Shown here piece after piece: positions 11,098 to 51,438 of a stretch of DNA of 64,000 bases. The number at the start of each line of letters is the position of its first letter. The stretch's first letter is position 1. The DNA is from Moniliella sp. 'wahieum' (lineage: Eukaryota): contig RSEE01000106.1 in assembly GCA_003971905.1 (NCBI GenBank), positions 1 through 64,000 of the forward strand, in the 5' to 3' direction. Below the pieces are notes generated by a model. The model made no database searches. It was not told where the DNA came from and saw only the letters and a program-made list of their open reading frames with translations. Made by a program: the position numbers and the translations under genes.

Positions 11098-13267
11098 GGG
11101 GAGAAGCCAGAGGGAGGGGCGAGAGAGTAGATAGTGGTTAGAGGCGAGCGGAGCCACCAAGCAAGCGTCACGCGCGTGACGATCAGCTTGCTGATGAACC
11201 AACGATCAAGACGAACGTTGTGCCTACAATTCTGAACTGACTCGCTGAGCGCTGGCCCACGGCGCGCCTTTGCTCCAAGGGGCTTGCTTGGCGGGGCAAA
11301 TCCGCTGTGTACTGCACCCGCACGGAGGGGGTCGTGCATCGGTCGATCGATGATCGATGATCGATGATCCGAAGCCGCCGCACTCAGCTAGCCCTGCGCC
11401 TGTGTGCTGGCAGTGGCATCGATGGTTATCCAGACGATTGAAATCTGAGATCTTCTAAGATCTGAGATGCTTCGACGCGTGTTGTTCTGCTATCTTCTTC
11501 CCTCCCGTTCTTGCCTTGGAAGATCAGCACAAGGGTCGTGAGCGCAGAGCAAAGGTTTTGCATCTCATTTGATTGACGGAACACGCAAAAGTTGGACGGA
11601 CAACCTCTCATCCTTAGAGTTGGGCGCGTCGTCTCTTCTCCTTTCTGATGTGTGTGCGTAGCCAAAACACGACGTGTGTGTGGGTGTCATATAGTTCGGC
11701 TGATCTCGCTCCATTTCCAAATTTTCGTCCCGTCGTCTCACTCTTCGTGCTTCTCCACGTCGCGTCATGTCCTGTGTTCTTGCTTCTTGAGCAAGCCCTA
11801 CTGAAAGAAACCACGAGTTGCAGTGTATCCACGTGTGAGTCGTAAATTCGCAAGTGTGGTAGAGGTGGAAGGGGAAGGGCGAAAGAGAAATAGAAAGTCG
11901 AGGGGACCAGAGACAGGATGGTCGACCAGGACCACAGCAAGCACGCCTTACTAGACATGGCTGTTTATATACAGAAGGAACCAGACCTCATCAAGTGCCT
12001 CATGAGGTATATAAACAGAAGATGGGAAACTCTACAGTAGTGAGGAGCAAAGGGCAGTTTGTCTGTCAAGACCGGGCGCCGCAGATACCAAGCTTCGTAT
12101 TGTAAGTCCAGTTCGCCCCTGTCTCTCCGCGGACAGCATCCGCGGCATGGATAAGGTTCTTCTGGCTCTCTCTCGCTAGTCTAAACGGGACTGACGCGTG
12201 TTGGATGAGATAACTAGGACATGCAGTTTCAGCGTCGGAGATAACCGGAGCGCCCCGGAAACAGGGCGAATCCTCTTTCCAAAAACCGGACGGTTGTTAG
12301 CACCAAACAAATGAAGAGCGTGCCAAATAGAGGGAAAAACCGATAGTGCAAAACGCGCAACAGAAAGAAGCATCACTATCGCACCTCCGCATCAAAGTAC
12401 AGGGGGGGTTCTGATGTTCGGACCCGAAGACGGGGAAGCGAATTATGAAGGAGTGGAGGATACCAACTGGTGCATCTGGCGGGCCGGAGCCTTCTACTCT
12501 GATCTTGTTGCTTGGCAAGCAAACTGGGATATGCATCCATTTTACCGACAGGTGCTGCTGCGGTGGGTAACAACAAAAGAAATTAGGCACAACAAACGAG
12601 ATTGTTACACTGTGTCCTGTGGTAATGGAACGCAGATCAAGGAGAAGAGGAAGTGAAAAAAACGGGTAACCCACTGATATATTTTCGACGTACATAATGA
12701 GAGAGGCCCGAGAGGATCTGCTGCAGATTGCCATGGCTTTGTCTTGATCAATGTCGATAGCGGCTCTGTGAGTGACGTGAGCAGTAGATACTGGCGCTTT
12801 GGTAGCAGTCCCATTCCTTCTCCATTCTTCGAGACGCCGTTGTTGGTACCAACCGCTACGACGGGCCCTGGGGTGGGTGCGTTGCTGTGGTGCGACGGAT
12901 GGATCATGCCACGCCCACTGCGGTCCACACAGGAGCCAAGCCAGGGGGCGTCACGTGCTCCTGGGGCTGCAGGGCGGGGCACGAGGCGAGTGTGGGGGCG
13001 CTTGGCCGGATGCGCGGTGGACGCGTGGACACTGGGCGTGTGCGGGGGGCCGTTGGGGCTCCCCTTGCGCCAGCGCTGGCTTCGACTCGTTTCGGCTGCG
13101 AAGAATTGGGCTCGCCGGGCGCCCCACCGCGCCTGTGCCCGCCCGGTGCTGGCTGCCTGCTGCGGCCATGCGCGCGCCACGCCGCCGGTTGCGCGGGCGT
13201 CGTGTCGAGCGACATCGGCGCCTCCCTCCCGCCCCCCACCCACCAAACCCCCCACCCCGCCTCCGCC

Positions 13268-13903
13268 ATGGCCCGTCGTGCGCGCAGCTTTGTGTGTGGA
13301 AAGCTCGGCCACCTCGCGTCAGAGTGCACCAGCCCCGAGCGCGTGTGCTTCAACTGTGGCAACACGGGCCACGAGAGCAACGCCTGCCCCGAGCCCCACT
13401 CGGCCACCCAGCGCCAGTGCTACCGCTGTGGCCAGTCGGGCCACATCAAGGCCGACTGCCCCAACGAGCCCATCGACCTCCCCGAGACCCCGGCGGCCGC
13501 TACCAAGGCCCCGTCGACGGCGACAAGCCCGCGCCTACGTCGGCGCCCGCACCCCGCCCGCCCAAGACCAAGGCATGCTACAACTGCGGCTCCCAGGACC
13601 ACTTGGCGCGCGACTGCACCCAGCCGCCCTCGGCCGACGCCCCGGCGCCCAACACCTCCCGCGTGCGCTGCCGCAACTGCTCCGAGCGCGGCCACTTTGC
13701 CCGCGACTGCCCCAACGGCAAGAAATGCTACCGCTGCCAGGGCATTGGCCACGTACGTCCCCCCCCCCCCCACCTTGCCTCCCCTTCTGGGCTGTGTTTG
13801 CTCTTTTTTGCTTCTCTTGTCCCCCAATCCCGTCGGACGTGGCTAACCTACCCTTGGGCCTTTGCAGATCGCACGTGACTGCCCCAACGAGCCGGCCGAG
13901 TAA
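13268..13903 (+). CDS. GIS2: CCHC zinc-knuckle nucleic-acid binding protein (GIS2/Byr3/CNBP-like)
   Basis: About six CX2CX4HX4C knuckles (CFNCGNTGHESNAC, CYRCGQSGHIKADC, CYNCGSQDHLARDC, CRNCSERGHFARDC, CYRCQGIGH|IARDC); intron 13753-13867 (GTACGT..CTAAC..CAG). Confidence 0.85.
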
Positions 13904-14220
13904 GGGCTGGAGCCTGTTTCGCTGCGCTCGGCTCTCGTGTGGCCTCACCTGTGACGCCTTTCATTTTCCCCTGGCCTGTTCCTGCTTGGTTTAGTGTGAA
14001 CTTGATATCCCGTCACCTCCCGCCCGTCCATGGTCGATCCTGTTTGCTCTGCTTCCTCCCCCGCCTGGCTCTATAGACATAGACGCACCGCAGCGCAGCG
14101 TATCTACCGAGCTCTGCGTTCTCACCCGCCTGCTATGGGGCCGGCCACGCGACGCAGTGAACGCAGCAGCTGGCCAGCGACAGAACTCGATTCGATTGGC
14201 TGCAACCATCCGCACAATGG

Positions 14221-14292: not shown

Positions 14293-15730
14293 TCACGACA
14301 AGTCAATCTCCTCCGTTGGCAAGTCTTGGGAATCGCCACGGCCATGGAAGCCCGGGGAGGAGGCAAGGTTGACCTCTTCCATGCTTTCGGTGAGGTGGGT
14401 GGTGGCCGAAGCGTAGGCCGGCACGTGGGCGGCCAAGCCTTGGCCTTGGTGCGCAGCGATGGGCGTGTGCTCCGAGTCGAGCGGGGTAGAAGCCAAGCCT
14501 TGGCCTGTCCGGCCCGTTTCGGCCTCAGCCTCGCCCTCGGTCTCGCTCTCTTTCGGCGGCACGATCGTGTCGGACGAAAGGGGGGCGCATCAGGACGAGT
14601 GCCAAGGGCTCCAGCGGATCCACCGCTCCGTCCGAGGTTGCATCCGTGTCAGGATCGGCCGATGCGTCGTTGCCTCCCTCCTTGCCCTTCGTATCCTCCT
14701 CGTGCAGCAGCGCACCAATCGTTTTGCGCAGTTGAGCCAGGTTCGGTGGTTCCTGGCCAAGGTAGTAGGCAGAAATGGGGACCATCCTGCCGGACATGCG
14801 GGGTCAGTCTCAAGTCTCACGTCTCACGTCTCCAGTCTCAGTGCTTGTCGGATGTAGGGTGTGGTTGGTCGTGGGTCGGTGGGTGGTGGTCAGACAAACA
14901 GAGGGGAACAGCCACACGTACTTTTTCTCTGCGTAGCAGGCAAAGATCCAAGCGGGTTGAACGATGGGCAGGCTGAGTTGGGCCGCGCGGTTGTACATGG
15001 AGCCCATGCCGCCCTTGACGGGGTCGCCGCGATTGCGCGGGTCGGAGCAGACGTAGTGGGTCGTCTCGATTTGGATCTTGTCGGTGGGCGTATGGGCGTT
15101 CATCTTGCGCAGTGCCGCCACGGCCGCACGCTCAATGTTAGGGTCCTCAATGTGGCCGAGACAGACGGCGATGCCCGAGGTGTCCTGGATGGTGTGGGTG
15201 CGGAGGCGGATAATGTTGGAGGGCAAGGCACCGGCCGAGGTGCGCAGGACAAGGTGGAAGGTGTAGTCGGCATCAACGTCGAGACCACTGAGTTTGGTAC
15301 TGGTGTTGACGAGCGGATTGGGGATGGCGGCCAAGCGGGCGCCGTTGCGGTAAATGTCGAGGCCCAAGATGCGCGCCGAGGCGAGCTCGACCTTGTCCCA
15401 CTCGAGCGTGACGGAGGTTTGGGTGACGTTGCGCTCGCGCAGCAAGGCACGCGCGGCTTGGTGGAGCCATAGGCATTGAGGATCTTCTCCTGCAGGTCGA
15501 CAAACGCCTTGCGTGTGCGTTCCTCCTCGGTCTCGTTGCGCGTGACGCGGATGTTGACGACGCTGCCGCCGCCGACGCCGGGCGGGAGGAGGAGGCTGGG
15601 GAACTCGATCAGCGACGCACGCGGGCCAATGAGGATGGCCATGCCCGCATCGAGCTTGCCGACGGTGAAGGTGAAGCTCTCGCTGGCATCGTCCGTGGCC
15701 GGCGGCGCGGTGGGGGGCGAGGATGGACAT
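14293..15730 (-). CDS. CHS5: Chitin biosynthesis/exomer scaffold CHS5 (CHS5_N + FN3 + BRCT)
   Basis: FTVGKLDAGMAILI..LIEFPSLLLPPG..GSVVNI; RNVTQTSVTLEWD..IYRNG..TSTKLSGL; BRCT with ETTHYVC..PIVQPAW; intron ~14788-14921. Confidence 0.93.
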
Positions 15731-15959
15731 GGCGGGGGCGATGGCGGGAAACGAGCGGCGCGACGCTGCGCTCCCGAGCTGCGACGTGGCGGGGGCGTGG
15801 CGCAGGCGGAATCGCGTGCGGCGTCCCATTCCGCCCTGGGGCTGCTGGCTACGCTGGATGATGATGCAATGATGCATCGCAGTAATATATTCTGACTGTG
15901 CTGCCCCATCGTCTGATGGACGCCTGGAGAGTACGTGATGCATGCATTGGTAACGGCGC

Positions 15960-18917
15960 CTACTGCTTAGTGGGGGGATGGCGGGCGTAGTGCACATGCC
16001 CCCCCCGCGGCTCCTCCTCCACGTCCGAATCCGAGTCGTCGTCGCCATAGACGACGAGCGCCGTCTTGCTGGGGCGCAGCGCGCGTGGGCTGGCTGGCGC
16101 GGGGTTGCGCGGGCTGGCCACCAGATGGTCCGCCAAGTTGCCCGCCACCAACGACGCCCGTCGGTCCGCCACGCTCTGCCGGGCGGCATGCGCACTCGCC
16201 GCCAGTTCCGCTGCGACACTGCCCTGTCGCCCGCGCGTACGCCCGCCCACAGGCACAAGCGGTGTGTGGGCCCCGGCTGGCGGAAGCCAGCGGCAGTCAT
16301 GTGCCGGCGCGAGACGGCGGTAGGCGGCTTGGGTGGACCGGGACTGCCGTACCGGTCGGGACTGTAGGAGAGCGGAGGACTCTCGCTCTTTCCATCGTCC
16401 CCTCGGTGGCAGAGGAGCCAGGCAGGTCCATTGGCCCACCTGGCACCGGCACCGGCACCGGCGCCGCTTCCCCGCTGGCACGGGGCTCGGACACACCTTC
16501 CTCCGAGGACAGCTCGGCAGGCACACTTCCCTTGGGTGGTGCGCGGTGCGGGTCGAGGGACATGGTGGGAGAGGGAGGACGGGTGTGGTTGGTAGAGTGC
16601 GAGATGGGCGAGGCGCCAACCGAGGGCCCGACGGGCGTATGCGCACCGCTGCCCGGCATAGAGCGGGAGGACAAACGAGTACGAGACGGGGGCGAGCGCA
16701 AGGAACTCATTCGCATTCCCTTGGGCGCATGGGTACGGGTCAAATGGGACAAAGGCAGACGAGGAAGCGCTTCGGTCTTGCGCTGCTTGCCCGATTGCGA
16801 CCGTCGCATGTCTCCGCTCGAAGGCGCGGAGTAGAGGTACCGCCACCGCCACCAGCCCCTGGGCCCAACGACCCGATGGGGTCACACCTTCGCTAGGCGT
16901 AGTGGGATGGGTCGCTCTTCAATATCATACGACGCTTCGCTGTTCGAACGCGGTGGGGTGCCCGTTTTCCTGCCTTGGTCAGGGGATGGCGGTATGGACA
17001 TGGTTGATTCGCGAGTTGGATGGGAGCCGGGAGGAGCAGGGGGGGAGGCTGGCACCGGATTCTTCGTAGGGGTAGCGGAGCAGGCGCGGGTGCAGATTCC
17101 TGGTCCGGTCCAAGGGACTGGGACGACGAGGCCGCGGGTTGTGCAGCCGACGCAAGTGGGGGGGTGCATCTGCAGGTCCCGATGGTGTGTCATCTTCCTG
17201 CAGCTCGTCTTCCTCTGGGTCGTCCTCGAGGACAACAAATGACTTTTGGCGTTGCCGTTCGTTCCATTTGAGCGTGGAGGAGATGGCACGGAACCAGTCG
17301 ACGGATTGATTGTCGCGACAAACACTAGGGAACGGGTAGCGGGACGCAGTGACTTTAATGTGGTCGCCTTGCTTGAGCTCCACCCGGCCACGTCCATCAA
17401 AACTAGCCCAGGCCGTACTGCGCGAATTGTAAGGGACTACAATGCGTACGTCAATGCTGTCGGGCAAGAGCATGGGTCGGAAGGAGAGCGTGTGCGGGCA
17501 AATGGGCGTGATGAGAATCGCTGGGATCTCGGGATGAGCGAGGGAGCCACCGGCGGCAAGCGAATACGCAGTCGAGCCCGTTGGCGTCGCAATGCAAATC
17601 CCGTCAGCCTGGACCGTTGTCATGTGATGTTCGTTGCCGAAAATCTCAAGCAGGGTGACAAACGGACTGGGGCCACGGTCAACGACCAGGTCGTTGAGTA
17701 CCTCGAACGTCTCGTGAGGACGGGTGGTAAAGCATTTGACCTCCTTGTCCATCGCGGGACACCCGTCGCCTTGGTGCGAATCCGGATCGTTGCACTGGTC
17801 GGAAGTACACTCTTCGTGCTCGCTGTTTTCGATGGTCTGCCATGCCCCGCGTGACATTCCTTCATGTAGATGGCACCCGTCTTGCCGCTCTTGATTGCAT
17901 ATTGCCGTTCGGCATCCTCCTTGTCCTCCCGTACCACGCTACCACCAAACGAACGGCACACGCACACGAGTCAGCGGGTCTGCCCGGGGGGAAAACGGGG
18001 GGTAGGAGCAAAGCACAAAGGGCAAGGGAGGGGCAACCTACATAAACAGTGGCCGTAAAGCGCATCCGCATATTGACCCGAATCCTTCGTCCAAGACGGA
18101 TTCCATGACCTTTTGAACTGGCCAAACTCAAAGTTGGTCAAAAATCCGAGCGAGCCCAGCGAGAAGGGCAACACGGGCGGCACGATCCGCTGGAACAGCC
18201 ACGAGGCAAACAACACCGTTCCATCCCCGCCAGCGTGACAACAAAGTCCACCAGCTCGGGATGTTCGGTGCACAGGTCGGGCGTCCAGTAACGCAACTGG
18301 CCTTCGTACGGGAACGCATCGGCCTCGGGGGTGTGCCAGCCGAGGAGCGGCGCTCGGCACGATGCGCAATCGGCTCGAACACGTGCGGATAGTCGCGCTG
18401 AATGCCAGCCGAGTCAAAACCGTTTAGAGCGCTGCAGTTGCTGGTCCACATACACGATCAGGCCGCGTCCACGCGGGCGCTGGCTCAGCATGAGCCACAG
18501 CGCAAGGTCGCGTGTAGGTGATGAGTGGTTGTCGCGCGCCTTGGTAATAATCAGCACGCTCTCGATCTTGCTCTTGACGCGCGCACGGCCAGCTGCTTGC
18601 TCATCTCGCGCACGCCCACGGCTGTCTCGGCGAGCTGGCGGGTCAGGGACTGGTTCTGGTCCTCCTGGCCGTCCTCGTGGCCGCTGGAGAGGACATAGGA
18701 GCTGCCATCGAGTAGTAGCCCTCGTCGTCGTCGTTGCGGTGCGGGTGGCGGGGGGGGCGGTGTCGGCGGGGGCGGGGGCAAAGAGGTCGGGGTGGGGGGG
18801 CGGGTAGGGGCCGAGGGCGTGGGGGGGGGCTGGTGAGGCGCAGCGCATCGAGCTCGGCGCGGAGGTGGGCAGCGTCCATGGCGGGCGGGCAGCACCGGGG
18901 GGGTGCGCGGGGCGCAT
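15960..18917 (-). CDS. UTR1: ATP-NAD kinase (UTR1/YEF1-like) with long disordered C-terminus
   Basis: ETAVGVREMSKQL, VLIITKARD, GGDGTVLF, LGSLGFLT, VLNDLVVDRG, QADG..ATPTGSTAYSLAAGGS, TPICPHTLSFRP; intron ~17939-18041. Confidence 0.92.
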
Positions 18918-25494: not shown

Positions 25495-26525
25495 ATGGTC
25501 CGTGGCCCCCGCAAGCACCTCAAGCGCCTCGCAGCGCCCTCGAGCTGGATGCTCGACAAGCTCGGCGGCGTGTACGCCCGCGCCCCAGCACCGGCCCCCA
25601 CAAGCTGCGCGAGAGCCTGCCCATGGTTGTACGTCTTTCCTCCCTGCCTTCTCCCCACCCGCGCTGCTTGCCCCCAGGAGGGACGGTGATGCGATTTCCT
25701 ACCACATCATGCATGGCTTTCCGATCCTCTGTGGCGACACTTCTTTCGATGTCTTGTCTGAGCCTCCTCCTGGCCTTGCATGCCTCCTCTTTGCTCCCCC
25801 TCCCACCTTCACTTCTTGGCAACTTCTTTGGTACACGTGGAATACTGACGCGATTCGCTGGGATGTAGGTTCTGCTGCGGAACCGGTTGAAGTACGCGCT
25901 GAACGGCCGGGAGGTCAACACGATTGTCCAACAGCGCCTGATCAAGGTGGACAACAAGGTGCGCACCGACATTACCTACCCCACGGGCTTTATGGACGTG
26001 ATTAGCATTGAAAAGTCGGGCGAGTACTTCCGCATTCTCTACGACGTCAAGGGCCGCTTTGTCGTCCACCGCATTGCTCCCGAGGAGGCTGCCTACAAGC
26101 TGCTTAAGGTCAAGCGTGCAGAGCTCGGCCCGGCGCGGCGTGCCCCACATTGTCACCCACGACGGCCGCACCATCCGCTACCCGGACCCGGACGTCAAGG
26201 CTGGTGACTCGATCAAGTTCAACCTGGTTGAGAACAAGCTGGAGGAGATTGTCAAGTTCCAGCAGGGTGCCTCGGTCATGGCCACTGGCGGACGTAACCA
26301 AGGTCGTGTCGGCGTGATCATTGGTCGCGACTCGCACCCTGGTGATTTGACATTGTCCATGTCCGCGACCCGATCGGCCGTGAGTTCTCCACCCGCATTG
26401 GCAACATCTTCATCACTGGCAACGACGGCCAGCATTTGATCTCCCTCCCCCGCGGCGGCGGCATCAAGCTCACCATCACCGAGGAGCGTGACCAGCGCCG
26501 TGCTCAGCGCGAGGCTGCCAACTAA
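25495..26525 (+). CDS. RPS4: 40S ribosomal protein S4 (eS4)
   Basis: [60 protein letters not shown]; intron 25629-25868. Confidence 0.97.
25674..25773 (+). ncRNA. Intronic box C/D snoRNA (predicted guide for 18S rRNA Cm49)
   Basis: Terminal stem CCAGGAGG/CCTCCTGG; box C GTGATGC 25686-25692; D' CCGA 25721-25724; C'-like GTGGCGA 25731-25737; box D CTGA 25758-25761; 12-nt guide CATGCATGGCTT antisense to 18S AAGCCAUGCAUG. Confidence 0.8.
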
Positions 26526-27742
26526 GCGCTGGCTGTCGTGGTTTGGACCAAAGTCCAATCCGAAAAAGAGCGCCCACCTCGCCTGCTCGTTTTTCTGCTT
26601 CGAGTGCTCTTGGTCCCTGTCTGGTTGGGGAGGCGTGTATATCTCTCTGTCCCAAAATCGCTGGCCAGCCAGCGCATACTATGCCCATATTCCGCTTTGG
26701 TGTCCATGTGCGGTCCCTATGCCTTGCACGATCGGAAGCAATGGTCATTCCTCGCTGCTTCGGATTTTTTTGTGTAGTCACACTAGTGGTACTTGAGCAC
26801 TACAGTCTCCATGGAGCGGGGGGAAAATCCTTCGTCACAAGGCTGAGAACCATGGCTGCGATACATCGGTGAGAATAGGACTGCCATTTCATAGCTGGGG
26901 GAGCCACCTGAGTTGCTTGGGGCCCAGTGAATTAACAGCGAAATTAGCACAGGGGAGAGTGATGGAATCGGCTGGGAACGTCCAGTTTAGCATCTTCTCG
27001 GCAGCATTGTACCCTGGATGCAATCATACTACTACCCTTCACAATGCCAGCCTTGACTTTGAAGGTGCAGAACGCCATTGTGGGGGACGACAAACCGGGG
27101 GGGGAGAGGGCCGAAAGGGAAGCTCTTGAATCGAGGGTATGGTGATGATCTTGGCGTTCAGGCCAAGACCTTGCAGATTGCCCCGCAGTCTGCCCAGCTG
27201 TGGTTCGCGGTAGCAGCCTGAGGAGATGCGCACTCCACTGGGCAGTCCACCCCAAAGGCATTCCCGTGCCTTGGTAATCGGATCTTGCCACGGTGGCAAA
27301 AAAAAAAAAGGCAGAGTGGCACAAAAATTGTTCGTCCTCAGGCTCACAAGGTGTGATGATGCAGACTCGATGATCTTAACTCGACTGGCTGCCGTTATTG
27401 GGCAAAAAGCCAGATGGGCGACTAACAAAGGCAAACGCAAACGCAAATGCAAACAAGGAAAAGGAGAAGGAAAAGGGCTCGGGCGGAGCGCAGCGATCGA
27501 CTATCCAATGTTGAACGTTGAACGTTGAACTCAACGTGTTTAACGTTTAACTTAACCTTCATCGAGTCACTCTAGTCACTCTCGGCGTCATTCAGTCTTC
27601 CACTGTCCTCCGCGTGCTCCACTGAACTGGACCGACCCAGGGCGTGGTCCCTTGTCATCCTAGTCATTCTATAGCCACCCTAACCATCCGAATCATCCCA
27701 GTCGCGCGCGTTCTTCCAACCTCCTCCCGCCTGTCCCTCTCC

Positions 27743-30700
27743 ATGGGGCCGCGACCGGCTGGCTGCGACGCCCACGAGGGTGTTATATCCACCGTCGCTC
27801 TTTCTCTCGCTGTCCCGGCCGTCTCCACCCCCACCCCATCCTCCCCGAATTGCCGCGCCACCGCCATATCCGCTGCCGCCCCCTCTCTCCCCCCTCCCAA
27901 CTGCACCCCGCCTGAGCGTATCGCTCACGCCGTCCGCACCGTCCGCGCCCTCGCACCAGGCCAGCAACAGACATTCATCGATCAGCTCCAAGACGGCGAT
28001 GCGGACCAGCAATACATGGCCGCCATCGCGGCTTGCGCCGTGCACAACACAGCCTGGATCCACGCCCATCTTTCCCACCCCGACCCCCACATCCAGCGCC
28101 TTGCTCTACGCGCTGCTACGCCGCTGCGCGTGTCCGACCAGGCCATTGCCACGGCGCTTCAGGGCGACCTGTCCTGGCGTACACGCCATGCTCTTTGGCA
28201 CACCGGTCTTTCCCACCGTCCGCGCCTTGCTGAACAGCTTTTCCCCAGCGTACGCGCCGCATGGGGCAACTCGGCCGCGCTCATGTTCTCCCCACTGCAG
28301 TGCCCCTGTGGTAGCTCGCTACCTCCCTGAACTGCTCACCATCGCCTGTGAGGATTCCCACTGGCGCCCTTTTCCACATTGCACCCCACCGTTTTCCTTG
28401 AAGTGCTGGTCCAGAACCGGGTCCATCTTACCAGCCAAGACATATCTTCGCGCGCCTGGTGGAAACTCTTTGGTCCGAGTTTGACGGCGCTCGTCAAGCA
28501 ATCCCATCAGCCCCCCGACGTGGCCGTCAAAGTTCTCGACCTGGTCGACTTGACCCCTGAGGATTTCCCCTCGAGCCTACGAGGCTGCCTGTCGGAGCTC
28601 TTCCGGGCCGAGCCTGGAAGGATGGTGCACTATATGATGCAAGGGCTGGTCACCATGCCTTCCAAGCAAGCGGCTACTAGTGTGATCCGTGCCGTTGATC
28701 TCGCCGGGCTTATTCTCACCTACAATGGCCCATCCCTCAAGAGATTGCGGCCCTTGGCGGGGATTTACAGCGTGCCCCACCCTGTCCGCCTTGCTATGTT
28801 CGAAGCACTTCATCCCCCGCCCTGTACCGCCATGCCCTCCGACCGGGACCTTGATCTTCTTTTCCCGTGGGAGGGACCAAGTGGCCCAGCAAGTCCTGCA
28901 ACACGCCACGGATCCGAACGAACGGTTTTAAAGCCTACGGCTATCTTCCGCATGATTCCCGAGCGCAGCAAGAAGTCCTTGGCTCTTCGGAAGCCCGATC
29001 CGGCCGTTCGCCGCTCAGGTTACGCCCGGCTCTGTGCCCAAGCTGTGATGGAAGGCGATCCCGCACGGTGGGCTGCCATGCTCGCTGTTCGAGCCAAGCA
29101 TATCCAGAACGAGCGGCATCCCCTGCGCATGATGGCCATCCACGATATCGCGCGCCGTCCGTTCCGACCGTACCTATGGTCAAAGGCAGCCTTGTCCCCA
29201 CTCAAACAGATGACCATCGACGCCGTTCAAGCCCCCGATGCCATGCCTGGCGATTACTACGAGCTTTTATATCTGGCCTTGTGGATCGTCGGTTGGTTCG
29301 GGGAGGACGAAGAAGTCATCACGTGGGCGAGGGAACTGGTAGAAATCACGCGCCCAGGAATATACTTCGATCCCCGTGACCTCGCGCAAACCTTTCCTCG
29401 AGGCAAGGAAGAATTGATCGTACGGGTCTTGGGGCCGTACCTACAGACGCTGGTCGACCAGGGGAATATTCTATTCTGATCACTTTGGTAACGAGGTTGG
29501 GTGCCCGTGCGAATGCGTGCGACACGCTTTCGAACTTGCTTTCCCGTGCCATTCGCACGACAGACAACAAAGTGGATGCGCAGCGGCTCGTTCATTTACC
29601 TCAAGCCAAAGAAGACGCGACAAGTTCGGCTTGCGGAACTGGTGGAGCATGACCCATCAATTGTCGCCATTGACTCGGTAGCCAATATGGTGGCGCGTGC
29701 TCATCCCGAGCTCTTGGTCAGCGTGCTTCGGTTCGCGCCTTGTGGGCTGTACCTCGAAGAAAAGGACAAGGCAGAGAATGGGTCTTTCCCTGCATTGTCC
29801 GTGCCCTCCGTGCCGTGGCACCCGAAACAATCACTCTTCCTTGCACAGGTCCAACGCGCTCTGGCCCGTCTCGAGCCCAACCGCAACCGGGACCAAGTGC
29901 TGCATCGCACGCCCGCGTCCCAGGGGGGTTGGCGCTGGTTGCGTCTTTGGTCCAACAGGGCTTGAAGGGCCCGGAGCATGTTCGTTCCTTTGAGCAGACA
30001 CTAGCAGCGCTCTCCTCCCCGTCCTACCTGCACCTCCTTCTGCCGTATGCGTCGGACCAGCAAGCGCGGGCGGCCATGCCAGCTGTTCAGCGAGCAGCGA
30101 AACACGTTCCCATCGCACAACTCCAGCCCCTCGTCCTCTCCCTCTTGGAGGGCAACGCAAAGGTATCCAGTCGCAAGACGGCCGTGCGGATCGGAGCGCG
30201 GTACTTGCCCTTCAGGAGGCGGCAGCGGTGCTGCAGGCTCAGGTGGCCAAGTCGGACCTGCACCCCCACGTGCATGCAGTGATCATCGGAATGGCACGGA
30301 CGAAGCTTCTGGGACTGCCAGAGGATGGGCGATGCTGGAGCAGACTCTCGTTCCTTCTGCCGAGGAAATTGAGGCCAACGCCGGCCAAAAGCTCGAGGTG
30401 GATGCCAAAGAGCGGTTGACTCGTCACTTGTCCCTCCGCAGCCAGCTCGCCCACACCCGCCCCTCGCATGTGCCCACGGACGCAGCGAGAGCGCTTTGGC
30501 GCCCTCGTGGTCCCCTCGCTGCCTCGAAGCACACTGGGTAGCGGTTCCTGGCTTGCGCGCGTGCAGCATGGGCGCCGTTCAATCCGGGTGCCTTCCCCGT
30601 CTTGCGCACCGCGGCCACCAACTTCTCCTGCGAGAGCCACTTTGTCTGGCAGGAGGCAATCAAGGCACTGGTGCTCCTGTCCAAGTCGCCCCAAGGCCAA

Positions 30701-31420
30701 GAGACGCTGTGTACCACAATGGCCCAGCTACTCACCGTCCCGCACAATCCCGAGCACAACGCCGGGCCCGAGTGCGACTTGCCTGCGGTGCGGAGGGTGC
30801 AGGCTCTGACGCACCACCTGTGCCAGCAGTTGGAGCAGGACCGAGAAGTCTACCGGGTGCCTGCTGGCCTGCCTCAAGACATGGTTCGGTGGGAGCAAGA
30901 ACGTCGCGGATCACTCTGGCGCGGATCCGGGCCTGGGCCAGTGGCAGCGAATACGTGGGCGTTAACACGATCGTCTTGCGGCCCCACTTGGTTGACTGGC
31001 GTGGTCTCCTGGATTCGGCTGGGGTGCCCGAGCAGGCGCCGGACCACGCTCTGGTCCCTTTGTGCCGCGCTTGGACCCACGCCGCCGGAACCTACCGTGG
31101 TCCTAGTCACTGACCACCGTCTGGCTCGCCTGCCAGGCTTGATGGGCCATGTGCTCCCAGCATGGGACCCTCAGCTGCGCTCGACCCAGGTGCGCACCGA
31201 AGCACCCGGTCTCCTCGCCGTGCTCACTTGGCTCCAGGCCCGGTCCGCTACCATGGTACGTTGGTCGTGCAAGTTGTCAAGCGGGCCATCGGCGGGGGCC
31301 GCCGGCTCTGCCTCTGGTCCCCGGCCGCGCTCCAATTGGTGCGCACGCTCCGCTGCCACCCTGCCTGGACGTTCGTGTTGGCTTACGACGTTGAGACGGA
31401 CGCGACAAAACCGTCACTAG
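27743..31420 (+). CDS. Large (~1200 aa) intronless helical-repeat hypothetical protein resembling an actinobacterial family (frameshifted)
   Basis: Colinear ORF pieces 27644-28330, 28379-29479, 29501-29965, 29740-30282 and 30602-31476 with motifs LSHPDPHIQRLALRA, LAEQLFPSVRAAWG, RKPDPAVRR, IQNERHPLR, KVSSRKTAVR, LRCHP. Confidence 0.65.
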
Positions 31421-32543
31421 TCTTACATTCGTGTAGTAGCTCGGCGCGTCTCAATTCAAGCAATGCGATGATGTAGCGTTTGTTCTTCCGCAGCACGCCC
31501 ATGGGCCGATGACATCTTTCTCTGTAGCTAATACACTCCTGGACTCTTGTCTCTTGTATCTTGCTCTTTTCAGCGCTGTCAGCGCACAGCGCCGCACTAT
31601 ACATGTATCCTAGGCGAGAAGAAGCCTCTCTCATGCATCGATCGTGAGTGCGAAGCGCGCACTGCACACTCTCAGGTCTCATTCTTCTTTCATAGTTGGC
31701 GCGGTATCGGGCGCAGAGGAAAGAACAAAACGAGCGCCTTTGCCACGGTTCGACGGTGTAGCTGTCTTTGGTGGCGGATGACGTTTTCGGGCCGAGATAA
31801 TGGCAATGGATGTGGAGCTCGTCTGGATGAGCACAGCCCATTAGAAGCCATTCGGAGGGGAGTGGATACTAGGTTGCTAGGGGCGGCGGGAGGGGAGCGG
31901 GGCGAGGAGCGTACCTGCCCCTGGATTGGGGACATGGAAGGAAGGTGCGAAAAAAAGTGCGTGTTCCTGCCAGGGGCAGGGGGGGTGCGTTTCCTGCGAT
32001 GATCTGAGGTGGCCGAGAGAGAGAAGATGAGACCAGCGGTCGGATTCAGATGTCGAGGCTTATGCTCTGTCGAACCAAGGTGGACGGTGGACGGTTGAAC
32101 GGTGAGATCTGAGATTGAAAGTGTTAGGTGGGGAGAGGATGCAGAGGCCAGCATGGCACATGGCATGCTGACGCATGGCACATGGCACATGGCACTTGCA
32201 CCCCTCGCTTCCCCCTGTCAAGGCGAGACATACATACCCCATCCATGCACCGCCCCATGCTCGGTCGCACCCATCAGCCGGTACGCGCGGGTACGAGCCA
32301 ACCGCACGCTGCATGGTCCATATTCCATCCACTGCCCTGTGGCCTTTTCTTCCCAGTTACCGGTTACACACTCTCCGCACCCACCACGCCATCCTACCCC
32401 AAGTCGCTATAGTTGGGAGATCTCAGACGTAACACCGTCCCCTCCCATCGCTTTGTCTCCCTCTGTCTGCTCTCCTGGCTGCCGTGGGTGGATTGGAGAG
32501 CAGGGTGGGCGCATGGATGCCAGCGGGCACATGTGTGTGTTGG

Positions 32544-32783
32544 TGTTGGCCTAGGGAGCCGGACGGGCAGAAGGATGAGGAGAAGGTGATGGATTGGAGC
32601 CAGAGTTGGGTCTGGGTACAGAGGCATCTATATAGGAGGCTGGACTAGGCACAGGGACAGTGAGTCACACAGGAGAGAGTGCAGGGCACAGGGACAGTGA
32701 CACGCAGGGACGTCAGCGTGGAAGCCGATGGAACCGAGGCGAACCTGGTCTACCGACTGGGAGCCAGAGGATCACAGTCAACA
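32544..32783. repeat. LTR copy 1 (240 bp)
   Basis: Identical by eye to 33703-33942; TG..CA termini; internal TATATAG. Confidence 0.95.
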
Positions 32784-33500
32784 CCCCCTGGCCAGGGAAC
32801 CCGGAGACATCGGTTGTGGGATGAGCTCCTGCCAGTGGATGTAGAGAGGGGAGGACTTGAGTGGCAACCGGGACGAATGGCCTGGAGTTGTGCATGGCCA
32901 CACGACTGGCCTACACCCCCGCTGTCCAGGATGACACCTGAACGAGCCGAGCGCTTGTGGTTGGTGTATTGTGCGACCGCCAGATGCTTGTAGAAGTCTT
33001 AGAAGTAAAAGTAGTAGGGGTTGCGCCCCGAAGCGATTTGGTGGGCAAAAGTAAAAAGCACCAGTTATAGGTGTAGTGAAAGAAAATTGGAAACTTGGAG
33101 TAAATGCGGTCCAAGGTCGTTTGGCATCAAAATTGGATGCGTTTGGTAGTTGTTTGGTTCCGCATGCCTGGTGCCAGTGGGGTCCATTGGGCATGGGAAA
33201 TGAACGGGCGCTATGCGTCAACCGTCTTGATCTGTTTGGGTTCTCTTTGTTGTTGAAAAAGAGGAGTGGAAGAAGTTGGGTGACCACCCCCCCCCATCCT
33301 TTCCCCAGGTGCCCCGGATGAATTGGCAATCCGGGGCGTGTAGCCGTGGGTGGGGCACTTGATGAGCAGCCACCCCCGCTTTCTGCGATTCGCCTGCGCC
33401 GTTTTGTCGTTGGAGGAATTTCGTCTCGTTGACGATACCCGACACGTTTTGTTCCGTCGTGTGTTTGTCCCTAAAATCATTGCCCCATCTGTGGGGGACG

Positions 33501-33580
33501 AGTGTGCCGATTGTGGCGGTAGTATGCCGATTGTGGCGGTAGTATGCCGATTGTGGCGGTAAGGTGCCGATTGTGGCGGT
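33501..33580. repeat. 4 x 20-bp tandem repeat inside the LTR element
   Basis: Unit AGTATGCCGATTGTGGCGGT with variants AGTG.. and AAGG.. Confidence 0.9.
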
Positions 33581-33702
33581 GGTGTTGTTGGGCGGGAGGA
33601 CGGGTGTGTCTTGTGGGCTTGGCGGCTTAGCTTGGGCTTGTAGGCTTGGGGGTGGGCTTGCTTGAAGAGCGCTCCCCTTCCGGGGGGATCAGATTGTAGC
33701 TC

Positions 33703-33942
33703 TGTTGGCCTAGGGAGCCGGACGGGCAGAAGGATGAGGAGAAGGTGATGGATTGGAGCCAGAGTTGGGTCTGGGTACAGAGGCATCTATATAGGAGGCT
33801 GGACTAGGCACAGGGACAGTGAGTCACACAGGAGAGAGTGCAGGGCACAGGGACAGTGACACGCAGGGACGTCAGCGTGGAAGCCGATGGAACCGAGGCG
33901 AACCTGGTCTACCGACTGGGAGCCAGAGGATCACAGTCAACA
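33703..33942. repeat. LTR copy 2 (240 bp)
   Basis: Identical by eye to 32544-32783. Confidence 0.95.
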
Positions 33943-48840: not shown

Positions 48841-49342
48841 GGAGGGGGTGGTGGTGGTGGTGGTGGCGATGGCGATGGCGATGGCGATGGCGATGGCGGG
48901 GGCTGGGTGCGGCGGGGTTGGCACGGCAGATGCTTGGCGGGGCGGGCGGGGCGTCGTCCAGCCGTCCCGCGGCGGAAGCGCGACGAAATGAAATTGCAGC
49001 CCACAGCGCTTGCCCCCGAGGAGGCACCGCGCCACTGTCCGGTGGGGGGGGCCTGCTGCGGGGGAGGCGCGGGGCGCAGGGCCACTGTGCTCTCCGCTGC
49101 TCGGCCGCGTAGCCGACGGGTGGATGCGATGAGTGTGGGGCACGGCGCCACTGCTCGCTGGTGCCATTAATTTGCCATTGGCAATCGCTACGCGTTGCTC
49201 CGACTACTCGTGTCTGTCCGCTGTAGCTACACCCACTAACACATGAGATGGCAGGTATGGTACAGATTACAACCGGCCTCATCGGTGCGTGGCAGAGACA
49301 AGAGCAGCCTCCGCTCCTGCGCCGCCCTCGGTCGCACATCCC

Positions 49343-50899
49343 CTACGCCCTTCTGGCCTTCTTGGCAGCCTTCTTCTCTGCCTTCTTCTTGTCCTTGTCC
49401 AGCTTGGCCTCCTTGTCTTTGACTTTTTCTGTCCGAGAGGAGGACTTGTCCTTCTTCTCTTTCTTTCCTTCTTTTCCTTCTTTTCCTTCTTGTCTTTCTT
49501 TTCCTTCTTCTCGGTGGACTTGTCCTCCTTCTCCTCCTCCTCCTCCTCCTCCTCGTCCACGTCCATCAACAGATCCCCCGCTTCGCCCTCGAGCGCATCA
49601 ATCGCACGCCGCATCGCGTCCGAGTTCTTGCCGGGCGGCTTGCCCGTCTCGTAAAACTCCAGACGCTCTTCCACCTGCTGGGCCATGACCGCACCAAACT
49701 TATCGTTCGGCTGGCTGCCGTTGGCCAGGGTGGTCGAGTCCGAAAAGCAGTCGATGCGACAGGCAATGCTGATCTTGTTGGCCAAGAAACGGGACATGCG
49801 ACCTTTGTTCTTGGGAGCTGCACGCTGGATGGCGGAAGCATGGTAGATCAAGCCATACTTGGGCGTGTTGCCCTTGGTCTTGAGTGCACGGAACAGGGCC
49901 TTTTCCGCCCCGAGAATCTGCACGGGGAAGCAGGGTATTGGCCAGGTTGGTCAACGATCCCGCGTGGGAGATGAGCCGTGCGCCAATCACTTCGCCCAGC
50001 AGGGCAGACAAGTTGGGGGCGACAAGGTGCATTTTTTCCACGAGGTACTGGTGCATGTGTTTCCTCGTCTCGCCAGCGTCACCACGCGCTCGGCAAACGT
50101 TTCAATGTGCTCATGTCGATCGGGGACATTGGGTGCCATCGACGCACGCGACGCATCGAGAATGTTTCGTGCTAGGGTATCGTCGCCGCCGAGCAGGTCG
50201 GCCAAGGGCTCCAGGTCGGCCTCGGTCAAGTCCTCCTTGTTCTTAATGTAGCGCGCCAACTTGGCGTACGTGACCGTGTCCGGGGCCATCTTGCTCACTC
50301 GGGGAAATGCCATCCGTACCACTCGCGCGCACGCATCGCAATGTATTCACGTCCTTGTCCAGGTGTCTACCAGTGCAATCGCCTGGATGATCATGTTGTC
50401 GGACCGGTTGACGTTGAACTTGACCTTGGAGCGGGAGTAGGAGTGGCCGAGGCCCAACTGCGCCTTGGCAAGGTCGCCCTCCGACAACCCCCTTGAGCAA
50501 CTTCTCAGCGTGCAGCCGGATCCCACGGAGCAGCTCCATCGTCCGTTCCCCCGTGTCGCACTGCATGCCTGTGGCCGCGACGATCGAGCTGGCCAAGTTG
50601 CGTTCCGACACGCGCCAACAGCACGCCCTGGCACTCTCAAAGTTGACCTGGAGCAGCTGCTTGAGGTTGTCATCGACGATGCCCTCCGAGATATCGAGAC
50701 AGGCCTGCAATGCCTCGACGGCCGATTTGAACGGCGCAAACGAGACGAGCGTCACCATTTTGGAAAAGGTGCGCAGGTCAGCAATTTGCGCCTGCACCTC
50801 GCGCGTCTTGTTGCCAATTTCCTCCACCTGGGCCGTTTTGAAGATGGCGAGCCCGGTGGCCGTCTCAAAGAGGAGGTGGGTGGGCGTGAGGGCGCTCAT
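49343..50899 (-). CDS. NOP56: Box C/D snoRNP protein NOP56 (SIK1)
   Basis: [97 protein letters not shown]-rich tail. Confidence 0.95.
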
Positions 50900-51438
50900 C
50901 GTCGTCACAGGTCCCCTCGGGCGGTAACGGAGGGTGCTAGGCTGGGAACTGGGAACAGAGCCAAGCGTCCGACTTGGGCCCGTCGGAAAAAAAAAGCAGG
51001 CCGCTACGAAAATCTGGGGCTTAGGTCAGCCTCCTGCCCGGGGCGGGCTGCCCTGCCGTTCCGCCCGGCGGCGGAGTTGGCGCGTCTGCCCTGTGTACTG
51101 CGTCCGACGAAAACTGCCTTTGCCTCGCCACTGTGAGGTGAGGCCGCCTGCGCCGTTCCCCACCCGACGGCTCAGATTAGCGGTACGAACCATCCTACAC
51201 CGCCTCCCTCTCCTGGGTTTAGGCCCACACCACCACCGGTATAGAGACGGTCAGATTCTCAGACCATCAGGCGATCAGACCGCGAGACCATCAGACCCCC
51301 CGACCCTCCGACCGGGTGGACGTTTACAATACGAGTATATCCATTTTTGGGGGGTGCGCTGCCTCGCGTTAATTGCACCTAGGAGCGCCGGGGGAAGCCC
51401 ACCAGACGCCAAGCGCAAGCTTACGCCGGCCCTTACGT

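Follow-up and report, generated by a model that had tools for sequence, protein, structure and literature searches.

A HEAT-like solenoid gene of probable actinomycete origin on a fungal contig of Moniliella sp. 'wahieum'

The locus and its coding homology

The window analysed here is a 64,000-nucleotide stretch of DNA from Moniliella sp. 'wahieum' (contig RSEE01000106.1, positions 1 to 64,000 of the forward strand), and our subject is a frame-broken coding region on its forward strand that is homologous to a family of large, HEAT-like repeat proteins found in actinomycetes and a few yeasts. Positions 27866-31419 (+) match residues 1-1161 of P0001, the nearest family member, in a frameshift-aware dynamic-programming alignment written for this analysis. 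This alignment pairs 1,128 codons, 457 of them (40.5%) with identical residues, and its score of 1564 stands against 128 for the reversed P0001 sequence used as a control. A reading made earlier from the DNA letters and their translations (the sequence-only reading) had described a long, colinear and intron-less gene of about 1200 residues at this position and had proposed a frameshift-aware search as a check. That search, as the score above indicates, returns a full-length match, and the colinear, full-length coding homology, in the size class of ~1,085-1,231 residues, stands as described. The single open reading frame (ORF) does not: the longest ATG-started ORF between 27743 and 31420 has 285 aa and the longest stop-to-stop frame 375 aa, and 8-15 frame hops are needed to follow the homology through this assembly. 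As unpaired window codons never occur in a run longer than four in the alignment with P0001, the locus is without an intron, in agreement with the earlier description.

The number of hops depends on the penalty imposed on them, with 13 on the homology path under the default penalty, 10 under a higher one and 8 under a very heavy one. A path that crosses no stop codon at all is found with 10-15 hops according to the penalty; under the default it takes 15 hops and scores 1561 versus 1564. The parts of the coding region are as follows, the frame of each segment being its start coordinate modulo 3:

27743..27865, forward strand: putative N-terminal extension, beginning at the first in-frame ATG (frame 2), 41 codons before the first aligned residue
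27866..31419, forward strand: HEAT-like family coding region, intron-less, in 14 frame segments, with full-length homology
27866-28291, forward strand: segment 1, frame 2
28293-28367, forward strand: segment 2, frame 0
28370-28861, forward strand: segment 3, frame 2
28863-28925, forward strand: segment 4, frame 0
28927-28971, forward strand: segment 5, frame 1
28973-29464, forward strand: segment 6, frame 2
29467-29592, forward strand: segment 7, frame 1
29594-29761, forward strand: segment 8, frame 2
29764-30210, forward strand: segment 9, frame 1
30213-30314, forward strand: segment 10, frame 0
30317-30856, forward strand: segment 11, frame 2
30859-31071, forward strand: segment 12, frame 1
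31073-31252, forward strand: segment 13, frame 2
31255-31419, forward strand: segment 14, frame 1
31420..31476, forward strand: uncertain 3' end zone, the last aligned segment being in frame 1, with a stop at 31474-31476

Besides this frame-1 stop, two others lie near the 3' end, at 31392-31394 (frame 0) and 31418-31420 (frame 2). The same locus is recovered by independent means. When nine family members were compared with the window by tblastn, eight matched this locus alone, in colinear pieces spread over all three frames; P0007 gave no match in the window. The profile built from the family alignment A1 matches the locus over its positions 15-977, again across three frames. A phmmer search with the longest frame (28352-29476, 375 aa) among 1.84 billion representative proteins returned 11 proteins at E<=0.001, and the lengths of nine fall within 1,085-1,231 aa. 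The best is P0001 (E 1.8e-41, 35% identity), and the matches include Streptomyces proteins of 1,159-1,165 aa, which bears out the likeness to an actinomycete family of ~1,100 aa that the sequence-only reading had proposed for this gene. A word-index search with the same 375-aa piece, restricted to the 'longer' lengths, gave no match.

Family members, distribution and predicted fold

The family is defined here by alignments A1 and A4; it has no database name, and its members are 1,085-1,231 aa long. Its bacterial members come from Streptomyces, Actinacidiphila, Kitasatospora, Catenulispora, Nocardia, Actinomadura and Nocardiopsis, along with one from the myxobacterium Corallococcus. The actinomycete proteins of ~1,100-1,180 aa, titled 'hypothetical' or 'HEAT repeat domain-containing' (e.g. 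WP_053697313.1, Streptomyces sp. NRRL F-5755; RVR_4626, Actinacidiphila reveromycinica), are of the same length as the predicted product of the window and colinear with it throughout, and they share with it the conserved columns NEQ.PVR, KVTSRKEA, H.DV and LR.H..PDVR as one profile-defined family. They differ from it in sequence (25-26% identity by tblastn), in the fraction of lysine among lysine plus arginine, K/(K+R), which is 0.02-0.06 in these proteins and 0.24 in the window, and in GC content at third codon positions (GC3), which is 0.94 in the Streptomyces homologue and 0.70 in the window. Over all the named bacterial members K/(K+R) ranges from 0.02 to 0.13.

The named fungal members are XP_028472585.1 from Apiotrichum porosum and XP_014179285.1 and EKC99159.1 from two strains of Trichosporon asahii, encoded on contigs of 425 kb, 1.79 Mb and 3.79 Mb. 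Four proteins from run assemblies (P0001, P0002, P0003 and P0005) likewise have a fungal-like composition, with a K/(K+R) of 0.30-0.37. These fungal homologues resemble the window copy in composition and in length (1,085-1,231 aa), but they have open frames where the window copy is frame-broken, and they are only 25-40% identical to it.

At the level of individual residues, the window keeps seven of the eight invariant and 42 of the 60 near-invariant columns of the family alignment. The motifs that the sequence-only reading had listed (KV.SRK.AVR, H.DV, LR.HP and others) fall on its conserved columns. The motifs DPD..VR, NE..P.R, H.DV and LR.HP.DVR recur along the alignment, and we see in them a likeness to the aspartate/valine-arginine signature that HEAT repeats bear. 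Pfam gives sub-threshold HEAT matches only, as no piece of the window and none of ten homologues reaches a gathering cut-off: the piece at 27626-28327 scores 16.9 bits against HEAT_2 (PF13646; cut-off 27.7), and the best homologue against the HEAT models, P0007, reaches 25.3 bits, also below the cut-off. Some bacterial members do hold precomputed matches to PF13646 or PF02985. None of seven family proteins matched an NCBIfam model, and none of six members matched any defence-protein model of PADLOC-DB 2.0 at E<=0.01, so that the role in defence that had been suggested for the product finds no support there. Full-text searches of the literature returned no description of this family or of such a transfer in Trichosporonales yeasts, and no matched passage of PMC8855340 concerns this gene.

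Searches with two profiles, that of A1 and that of the fungal-only alignment A3, each covering 8,000 word-sharing candidates, recovered an identical set of at least 27 proteins. Metagenome scans with A3 and with a piece of the window gave pattern matches, none of which codes for a relative. A search of a protein atlas with P0001 returned HEAT-type clusters of ~1,080-1,200 aa. One atlas cluster, of 115 proteins of ~1,197 aa with a score of 0.95 from language-model features, carries the label Eukaryota/Arthropoda, the phylum being taken from two members; it may represent mere solenoid likeness.

The bacterial range was explored in contigs of one genome per species, with the Streptomyces alignment A2 as query, and 445 of the 461 pattern matches code for a relative, so that the actinobacterial homologues whose existence had been put forward as a check are many. 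The best 80 of these 445 loci comprise 79 with Streptomyces in the title and one from an uncultured Actinomycetota metagenome-assembled genome; at 79 of the 80 a frame stays open for 900 aa or more. Sampling around G001, a Streptomyces genome, gave a match in 41 of 121 genomes of its family, the Streptomycetaceae, and in 5 of 301 genomes of an even sample of its phylum. Some Streptomycetaceae also encode a second, divergent full-length copy (e.g. G002:C1:1019706-1023011 (-); also in G308, G408, G372 and others), which scores ~250 bits as against 1,200 for the main copy. This second copy is a possible outgroup for rooting the family tree. A collection of 72,556 plasmid records holds the gene in five, four of them replicons of more than 1 Mb and one a weak partial match, and thus shows no sign of a plasmid vehicle.

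On Streptomyces chromosomes the gene lies in a conserved neighbourhood, with genes for an acyl-ACP-type desaturase, an ABC-F ATPase, a GPP34-domain protein, an SsgA-family protein and endonuclease V downstream. In 35 of the 80 loci a WhiB-family gene (e.g. L065:7547-7957 (+)) precedes the HEAT-like gene on the same strand at a distance of no more than 700 nt. In 31 it lies upstream at a greater distance, and in 14 no such gene occurs within 8 kb, nor is one present in the 1.5-kb flanks of three more loci (L083-L085). We considered this adjacency as evidence for an operon, and hence as a functional clue, and rejected it: with adjacency in only 35 of the 80 loci it represents shared synteny and not a fixed operon.

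The fold was predicted for P0001 with AlphaFold2 from an alignment of 67 sequences (mean predicted local distance difference test, pLDDT, 90.1; predicted template-modelling score, pTM, 0.83). The model, which is of this nearest homologue and not of the window product, is an all-α, HEAT/ARM-like solenoid of ~70 helices with no β or other domain, in keeping with the α-helical repeat protein that the sequence-only reading had envisaged. Searched against the PDB with Foldseek, it gave at least 487 matches at E<=0.001, and the 49 matches listed are HEAT-type or other helical-repeat solenoids, among them CAND1, mTOR, huntingtin, karyopherins, PA200 and condensin/cohesin regulators; their query-normalised TM scores are at most 0.25, with an rmsd above 27 Å and 9-14% identity. 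CAND1, karyopherin-β, the mTOR N-HEAT region and huntingtin are, like the predicted P0001 model, all-α solenoids of two-helix repeats. The likeness of the family to these eukaryotic HEAT/ARM scaffolds is one of repeat type only, with no evidence of a common function and with Pfam HEAT scores under the cut-off.

Frame breaks at the locus and in neighbouring genes

The broken frame of the window copy could stem either from errors in the assembly or from decay of the gene. The upstream neighbour, which encodes the ribosomal protein eS4, provides a control for assembly quality:

25495..26525, forward strand: eS4 (RPS4) gene, with one GT..AG intron and three intron-less frameshifts

Its intron, of 240 nt, spans 25629-25868 and begins with a GTACGT donor. 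The Pfam domains RS4NT, S4, Ribosomal_S4e, KOW and 40S_S4_C of this one protein are spread over different frames. At the break near 26130, alignments with eS4 structures from the PDB bring residue ~133 in one frame directly against residue ~132 in the next, and since these meet at the same nucleotide there is no space for an intron. Near 25579, following VYA (25576-25578), two bases stand for one proline codon within a run of C, and near 26347 two bases again take the place of one codon after HPG, before the sequence resumes as DIVHVRDP. The coding sequence of eS4, ~790 nt, thus contains three intron-less breaks of 1-2 nt. The Nop56/58-type gene on the reverse strand (49282-51025 (-)) shows two more within the ~680 nt of its Nop domain, where profile positions 98 and 95 meet at nt ~50068-50080 and positions 142 and 144 at nt 49937/49935. 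Taken together, these are five breaks in ~1.5 kb of essential coding sequence, or ~3-4 per kb, and the candidate locus has 2.3-4.2 breaks per kb, likewise indels of 1-2 nt.

Matches spread over different frames are seen elsewhere in the window. In a CHS5-type gene (14810-16915 (-)) the CHS5_N and fn3_2 domains lie in different frames, ~90 nt apart, separated by either an intron or a frameshift, and at 12678-13994 (+) zf-CCHC matches occur in two overlapping frames (12781-13875 and 12806-13843). The latter probably represents a single gene with several zinc knuckles whose frame is disrupted by the indel noise, or else a gag-like remnant.

As eS4 and Nop56/58 are indispensable genes with an equal density of breaks, and as a path free of stop codons exists through the candidate, we take its breaks to be assembly errors and not decay. 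The broken frame is most likely a sequencing or assembly artefact of uncorrected small indels, and by analogy with these neighbours the gene is, on balance, probably intact in the organism. Several points weigh against this. The argument is an analogy with two neighbouring genes; the invariant D805 of P0001, in the H.DV motif, is H in the window; 18 of the 60 near-invariant residues are not kept; and the terminal branch leading to the window copy is long (1.05-1.17 substitutions per site).

The last three of these points favour a true pseudogene, that is, a horizontally acquired and once functional gene now decaying through real frameshift mutations, which would also account for 8-15 frame hops over 3.55 kb, for the one altered residue among eight invariant ones and for a best identity to any homologue of just 40%. 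However, a like density of intron-less frameshifts is found in eS4 (three) and in the Nop domain of Nop56/58 (two), genes that cannot be dead, and the homology path does not force a single stop codon. Several of the lost near-invariant residues sit at hop boundaries (e.g. L140 and L141 at 28292), and the end branches of other fungal members are equally long (P0003, 1.05-1.21; P0005, 1.01-1.16). We therefore regard decay as rather unlikely, while still giving it appreciable weight beside an intact gene in a noisy assembly. Coding sequence in this assembly carries ~3-4 indel errors per kb, so that pseudogene and frameshift calls from this genome need the support of reads.

Origin of the gene and its significance

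The surroundings of the locus are eukaryotic. Upstream lie genes for Copper-fist, RRP36, α-adaptin, CHS5, NAD kinase and eS4 proteins, the last 1.2 kb from the candidate, and downstream lie genes for thioredoxin/PDI, CRAL-TRIO, Nop56/58 and KH-domain proteins. The placement between RPS4 and an LTR insertion, as described from the letters of the sequence, is accurate:

32544..33942, strand not assigned: short LTR-type element, delimited by direct repeats and a target-site duplication (repeat search and self-BLAST)

Its repeats (32544-32783 and 33703-33942) are 240 nt each, 100% identical and bounded by TG..CA, and the 5-bp target-site duplication GTTGG flanks the element on both sides. A possible primer-binding site (TGG...) begins 5 nt past the left repeat. 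In the inner 919 nt no reverse transcriptase or other retroelement domain was found by Pfam, which was applied to the minus-strand ORFs of at least 150 aa, covering part of this interior. The element may be a non-autonomous, TRIM-like one that was inserted recently.

The composition of the candidate is that of its surroundings: GC3 along the corrected path is 0.70, against 0.67-0.83 in segments of host genes taken in their proper frame, with an out-of-frame fn3 segment of CHS5 disregarded, and its GC content is 0.625, compared with 0.79 in the Streptomyces homologue. The GC profile is level over both joins of the locus.

Three trees bear on the relationships within the family: tree 1 with 39 rows (LG+C20, quick search), tree 2 with 25 rows (LG+G4, careful search) and tree 3 with 34 rows that include nine more Streptomyces loci (LG+C20, quick search). 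All three unite the window, P0001-P0003, P0005, T. asahii and A. porosum in one fungal clade with a support of 100 (in tree 1 from the SH-like approximate likelihood-ratio test). In tree 1 this clade shares a fork with a group of Streptomycetaceae and the metagenome protein P0010; Catenulispora comes next, and Nocardia, Actinomadura, Nocardiopsis and Corallococcus lie beyond the midpoint root. In tree 2 the fungi (100/100) are sister to one Streptomyces protein (100/99). In tree 3 three lines meet at one fork, namely the fungi (100), P0010 and the Streptomycetaceae, here monophyletic (90), and Catenulispora again follows (87). The Streptomyces protein of tree 2, P0031, is lost as the fungal sister with denser sampling under LG+C20 in tree 3, and no donor species is named. 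On these alignments the fungal clade is robust, and it is placed near the base of, or within, the Streptomycetaceae. Among the members recovered, the pan-fungal, vertically inherited clade that would have spoken for ordinary descent was not found; there is instead a narrow fungal clade (100) beside or inside the Streptomycetaceae, with other actinomycete genera further off.

The direction of transfer is inferred from distribution. In bacteria the family ranges much more widely and in a pattern that follows taxonomy, and its neighbourhood in Streptomyces is conserved; together with the lack of introns in the gene beside an intron-bearing eS4, this argues for movement from bacteria to fungi. The locus combines a narrow recipient range and a wide donor range with attachment among the donors, flanking host genes and host-like composition, features that we accept as marks of transfer. 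The proposal of a bacteria-to-fungus acquisition that was first made from the sequence alone is accordingly supported by the actinomycete homologues, the fungal clade, the host-like GC3 and the eukaryotic flanks.

Certain observations count against this interpretation of origin. The attachment point of the fungal clade shifts with model and sampling between trees 2 and 3. An approximately unbiased (AU) test on tree 2, in which seven Streptomycetaceae rows, a group picked after inspection of the tree, were held together without the fungi, does not reject a monophyletic Streptomycetaceae (difference in log-likelihood 28.9, p 0.095). The trees are unrooted, so that the direction comes from distribution and not from topology, and the deviant amino-acid composition of the fungal rows could inflate their grouping. 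The A1 and A3 profile searches added no further fungal member among the 8,000 word-sharing candidates, a scope that is not exhaustive for fungi. With regard to function, the WhiB-family gene, adjacent in fewer than half of the Streptomyces loci, offers nothing direct.

An origin in the reverse direction, from fungi to actinomycetes, or from a third, unsampled donor to both, draws on some of these same points, as the fungal clade forms one side of a single branch on which the root could fall and the AU test leaves room for the fungi outside the Streptomycetaceae; HEAT solenoids are, moreover, typical of eukaryotes. Against it, the bacterial range is far wider, extending from Streptomyces to Corallococcus with 445 species-level loci, against no more than about six diverged lineages recovered in fungi. 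The conserved chromosomal neighbourhood, the second divergent paralogue of some bacterial genomes, the agreement of the bacterial part of the tree with taxonomy and the lack of an intron next to a gene that has one point the same way, and we judge these alternative origins to be very improbable. Bacterial contamination or a chimeric contig join, with a HEAT gene foreign to the fungal chromosome, is suggested by an intron-free gene with bacterial relatives, but a chimeric join is unlikely and this explanation barely credible in view of the GC3 and GC values, which are far from those of the Streptomyces homologue, of closest relatives that are not bacterial but group with the T. asahii and A. 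porosum proteins, whose contigs measure 0.4-3.8 Mb, of the eS4 gene upstream and the LTR element with its target-site duplication and eukaryotic genes downstream in the same sequence, and of the even GC profile.

We thus consider it probable that the locus is a gene of the fungal nuclear genome that derives from actinomycetes and belongs to a HEAT-like α-solenoid family. The transfer is old and probably single, common to yeasts of the Trichosporon/Apiotrichum type and not specific to this genome. Under this proposal, an ancestor of that yeast lineage would have gained the gene once from a bacterium near the Streptomycetaceae, and its product would be a protein of ~1,160-1,180 aa whose degenerate HEAT-like repeats form an α-solenoid. 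After capture the gene would have descended vertically, gaining no intron as its codon composition shifted to that of the host, and would have diverged fast, to 30-40% identity between lineages, with the conserved repeat-signature residues kept. The fuller statement, that a non-enzymatic HEAT solenoid of ~1,150 aa of the Streptomyces type was captured once and has since been kept as a working gene in seven diverged lineages, the window included, we hold to be evenly poised between right and wrong. Lacking an enzymatic domain, the product might use its long, curved helical-repeat surface to clamp one or more partner macromolecules. Such a role as a non-catalytic scaffold or adaptor, with partners bound along the repeat surface, is a tentative suggestion that draws on the predicted model.

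Most described prokaryote-to-fungus transfers concern enzymes or transporters. The present gene resembles such transfers in being intron-less, in its narrow fungal and wide bacterial range and in its host-adjusted composition, but differs from most of those described in encoding a large, non-enzymatic repeat protein. As a kind of event it is therefore a known one and opens no new category; it is the cargo, a very large repeat scaffold without an enzymatic domain, that stands out, along with its apparent retention in several diverged yeast lineages, among them the opportunistic pathogen Trichosporon asahii. Although roughly one in three of the Streptomycetaceae genomes sampled has a member of the bacterial family, no description of it was found in Pfam, NCBIfam or the literature. 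Hundreds of genes would gain an annotation from a phenotype in either host. If the interpretation is true, this would be a rare eukaryotic domestication of a large bacterial scaffold protein, presumably rewired to a fungal partner, and the fungal gene could shed light on the role of the Streptomyces family.

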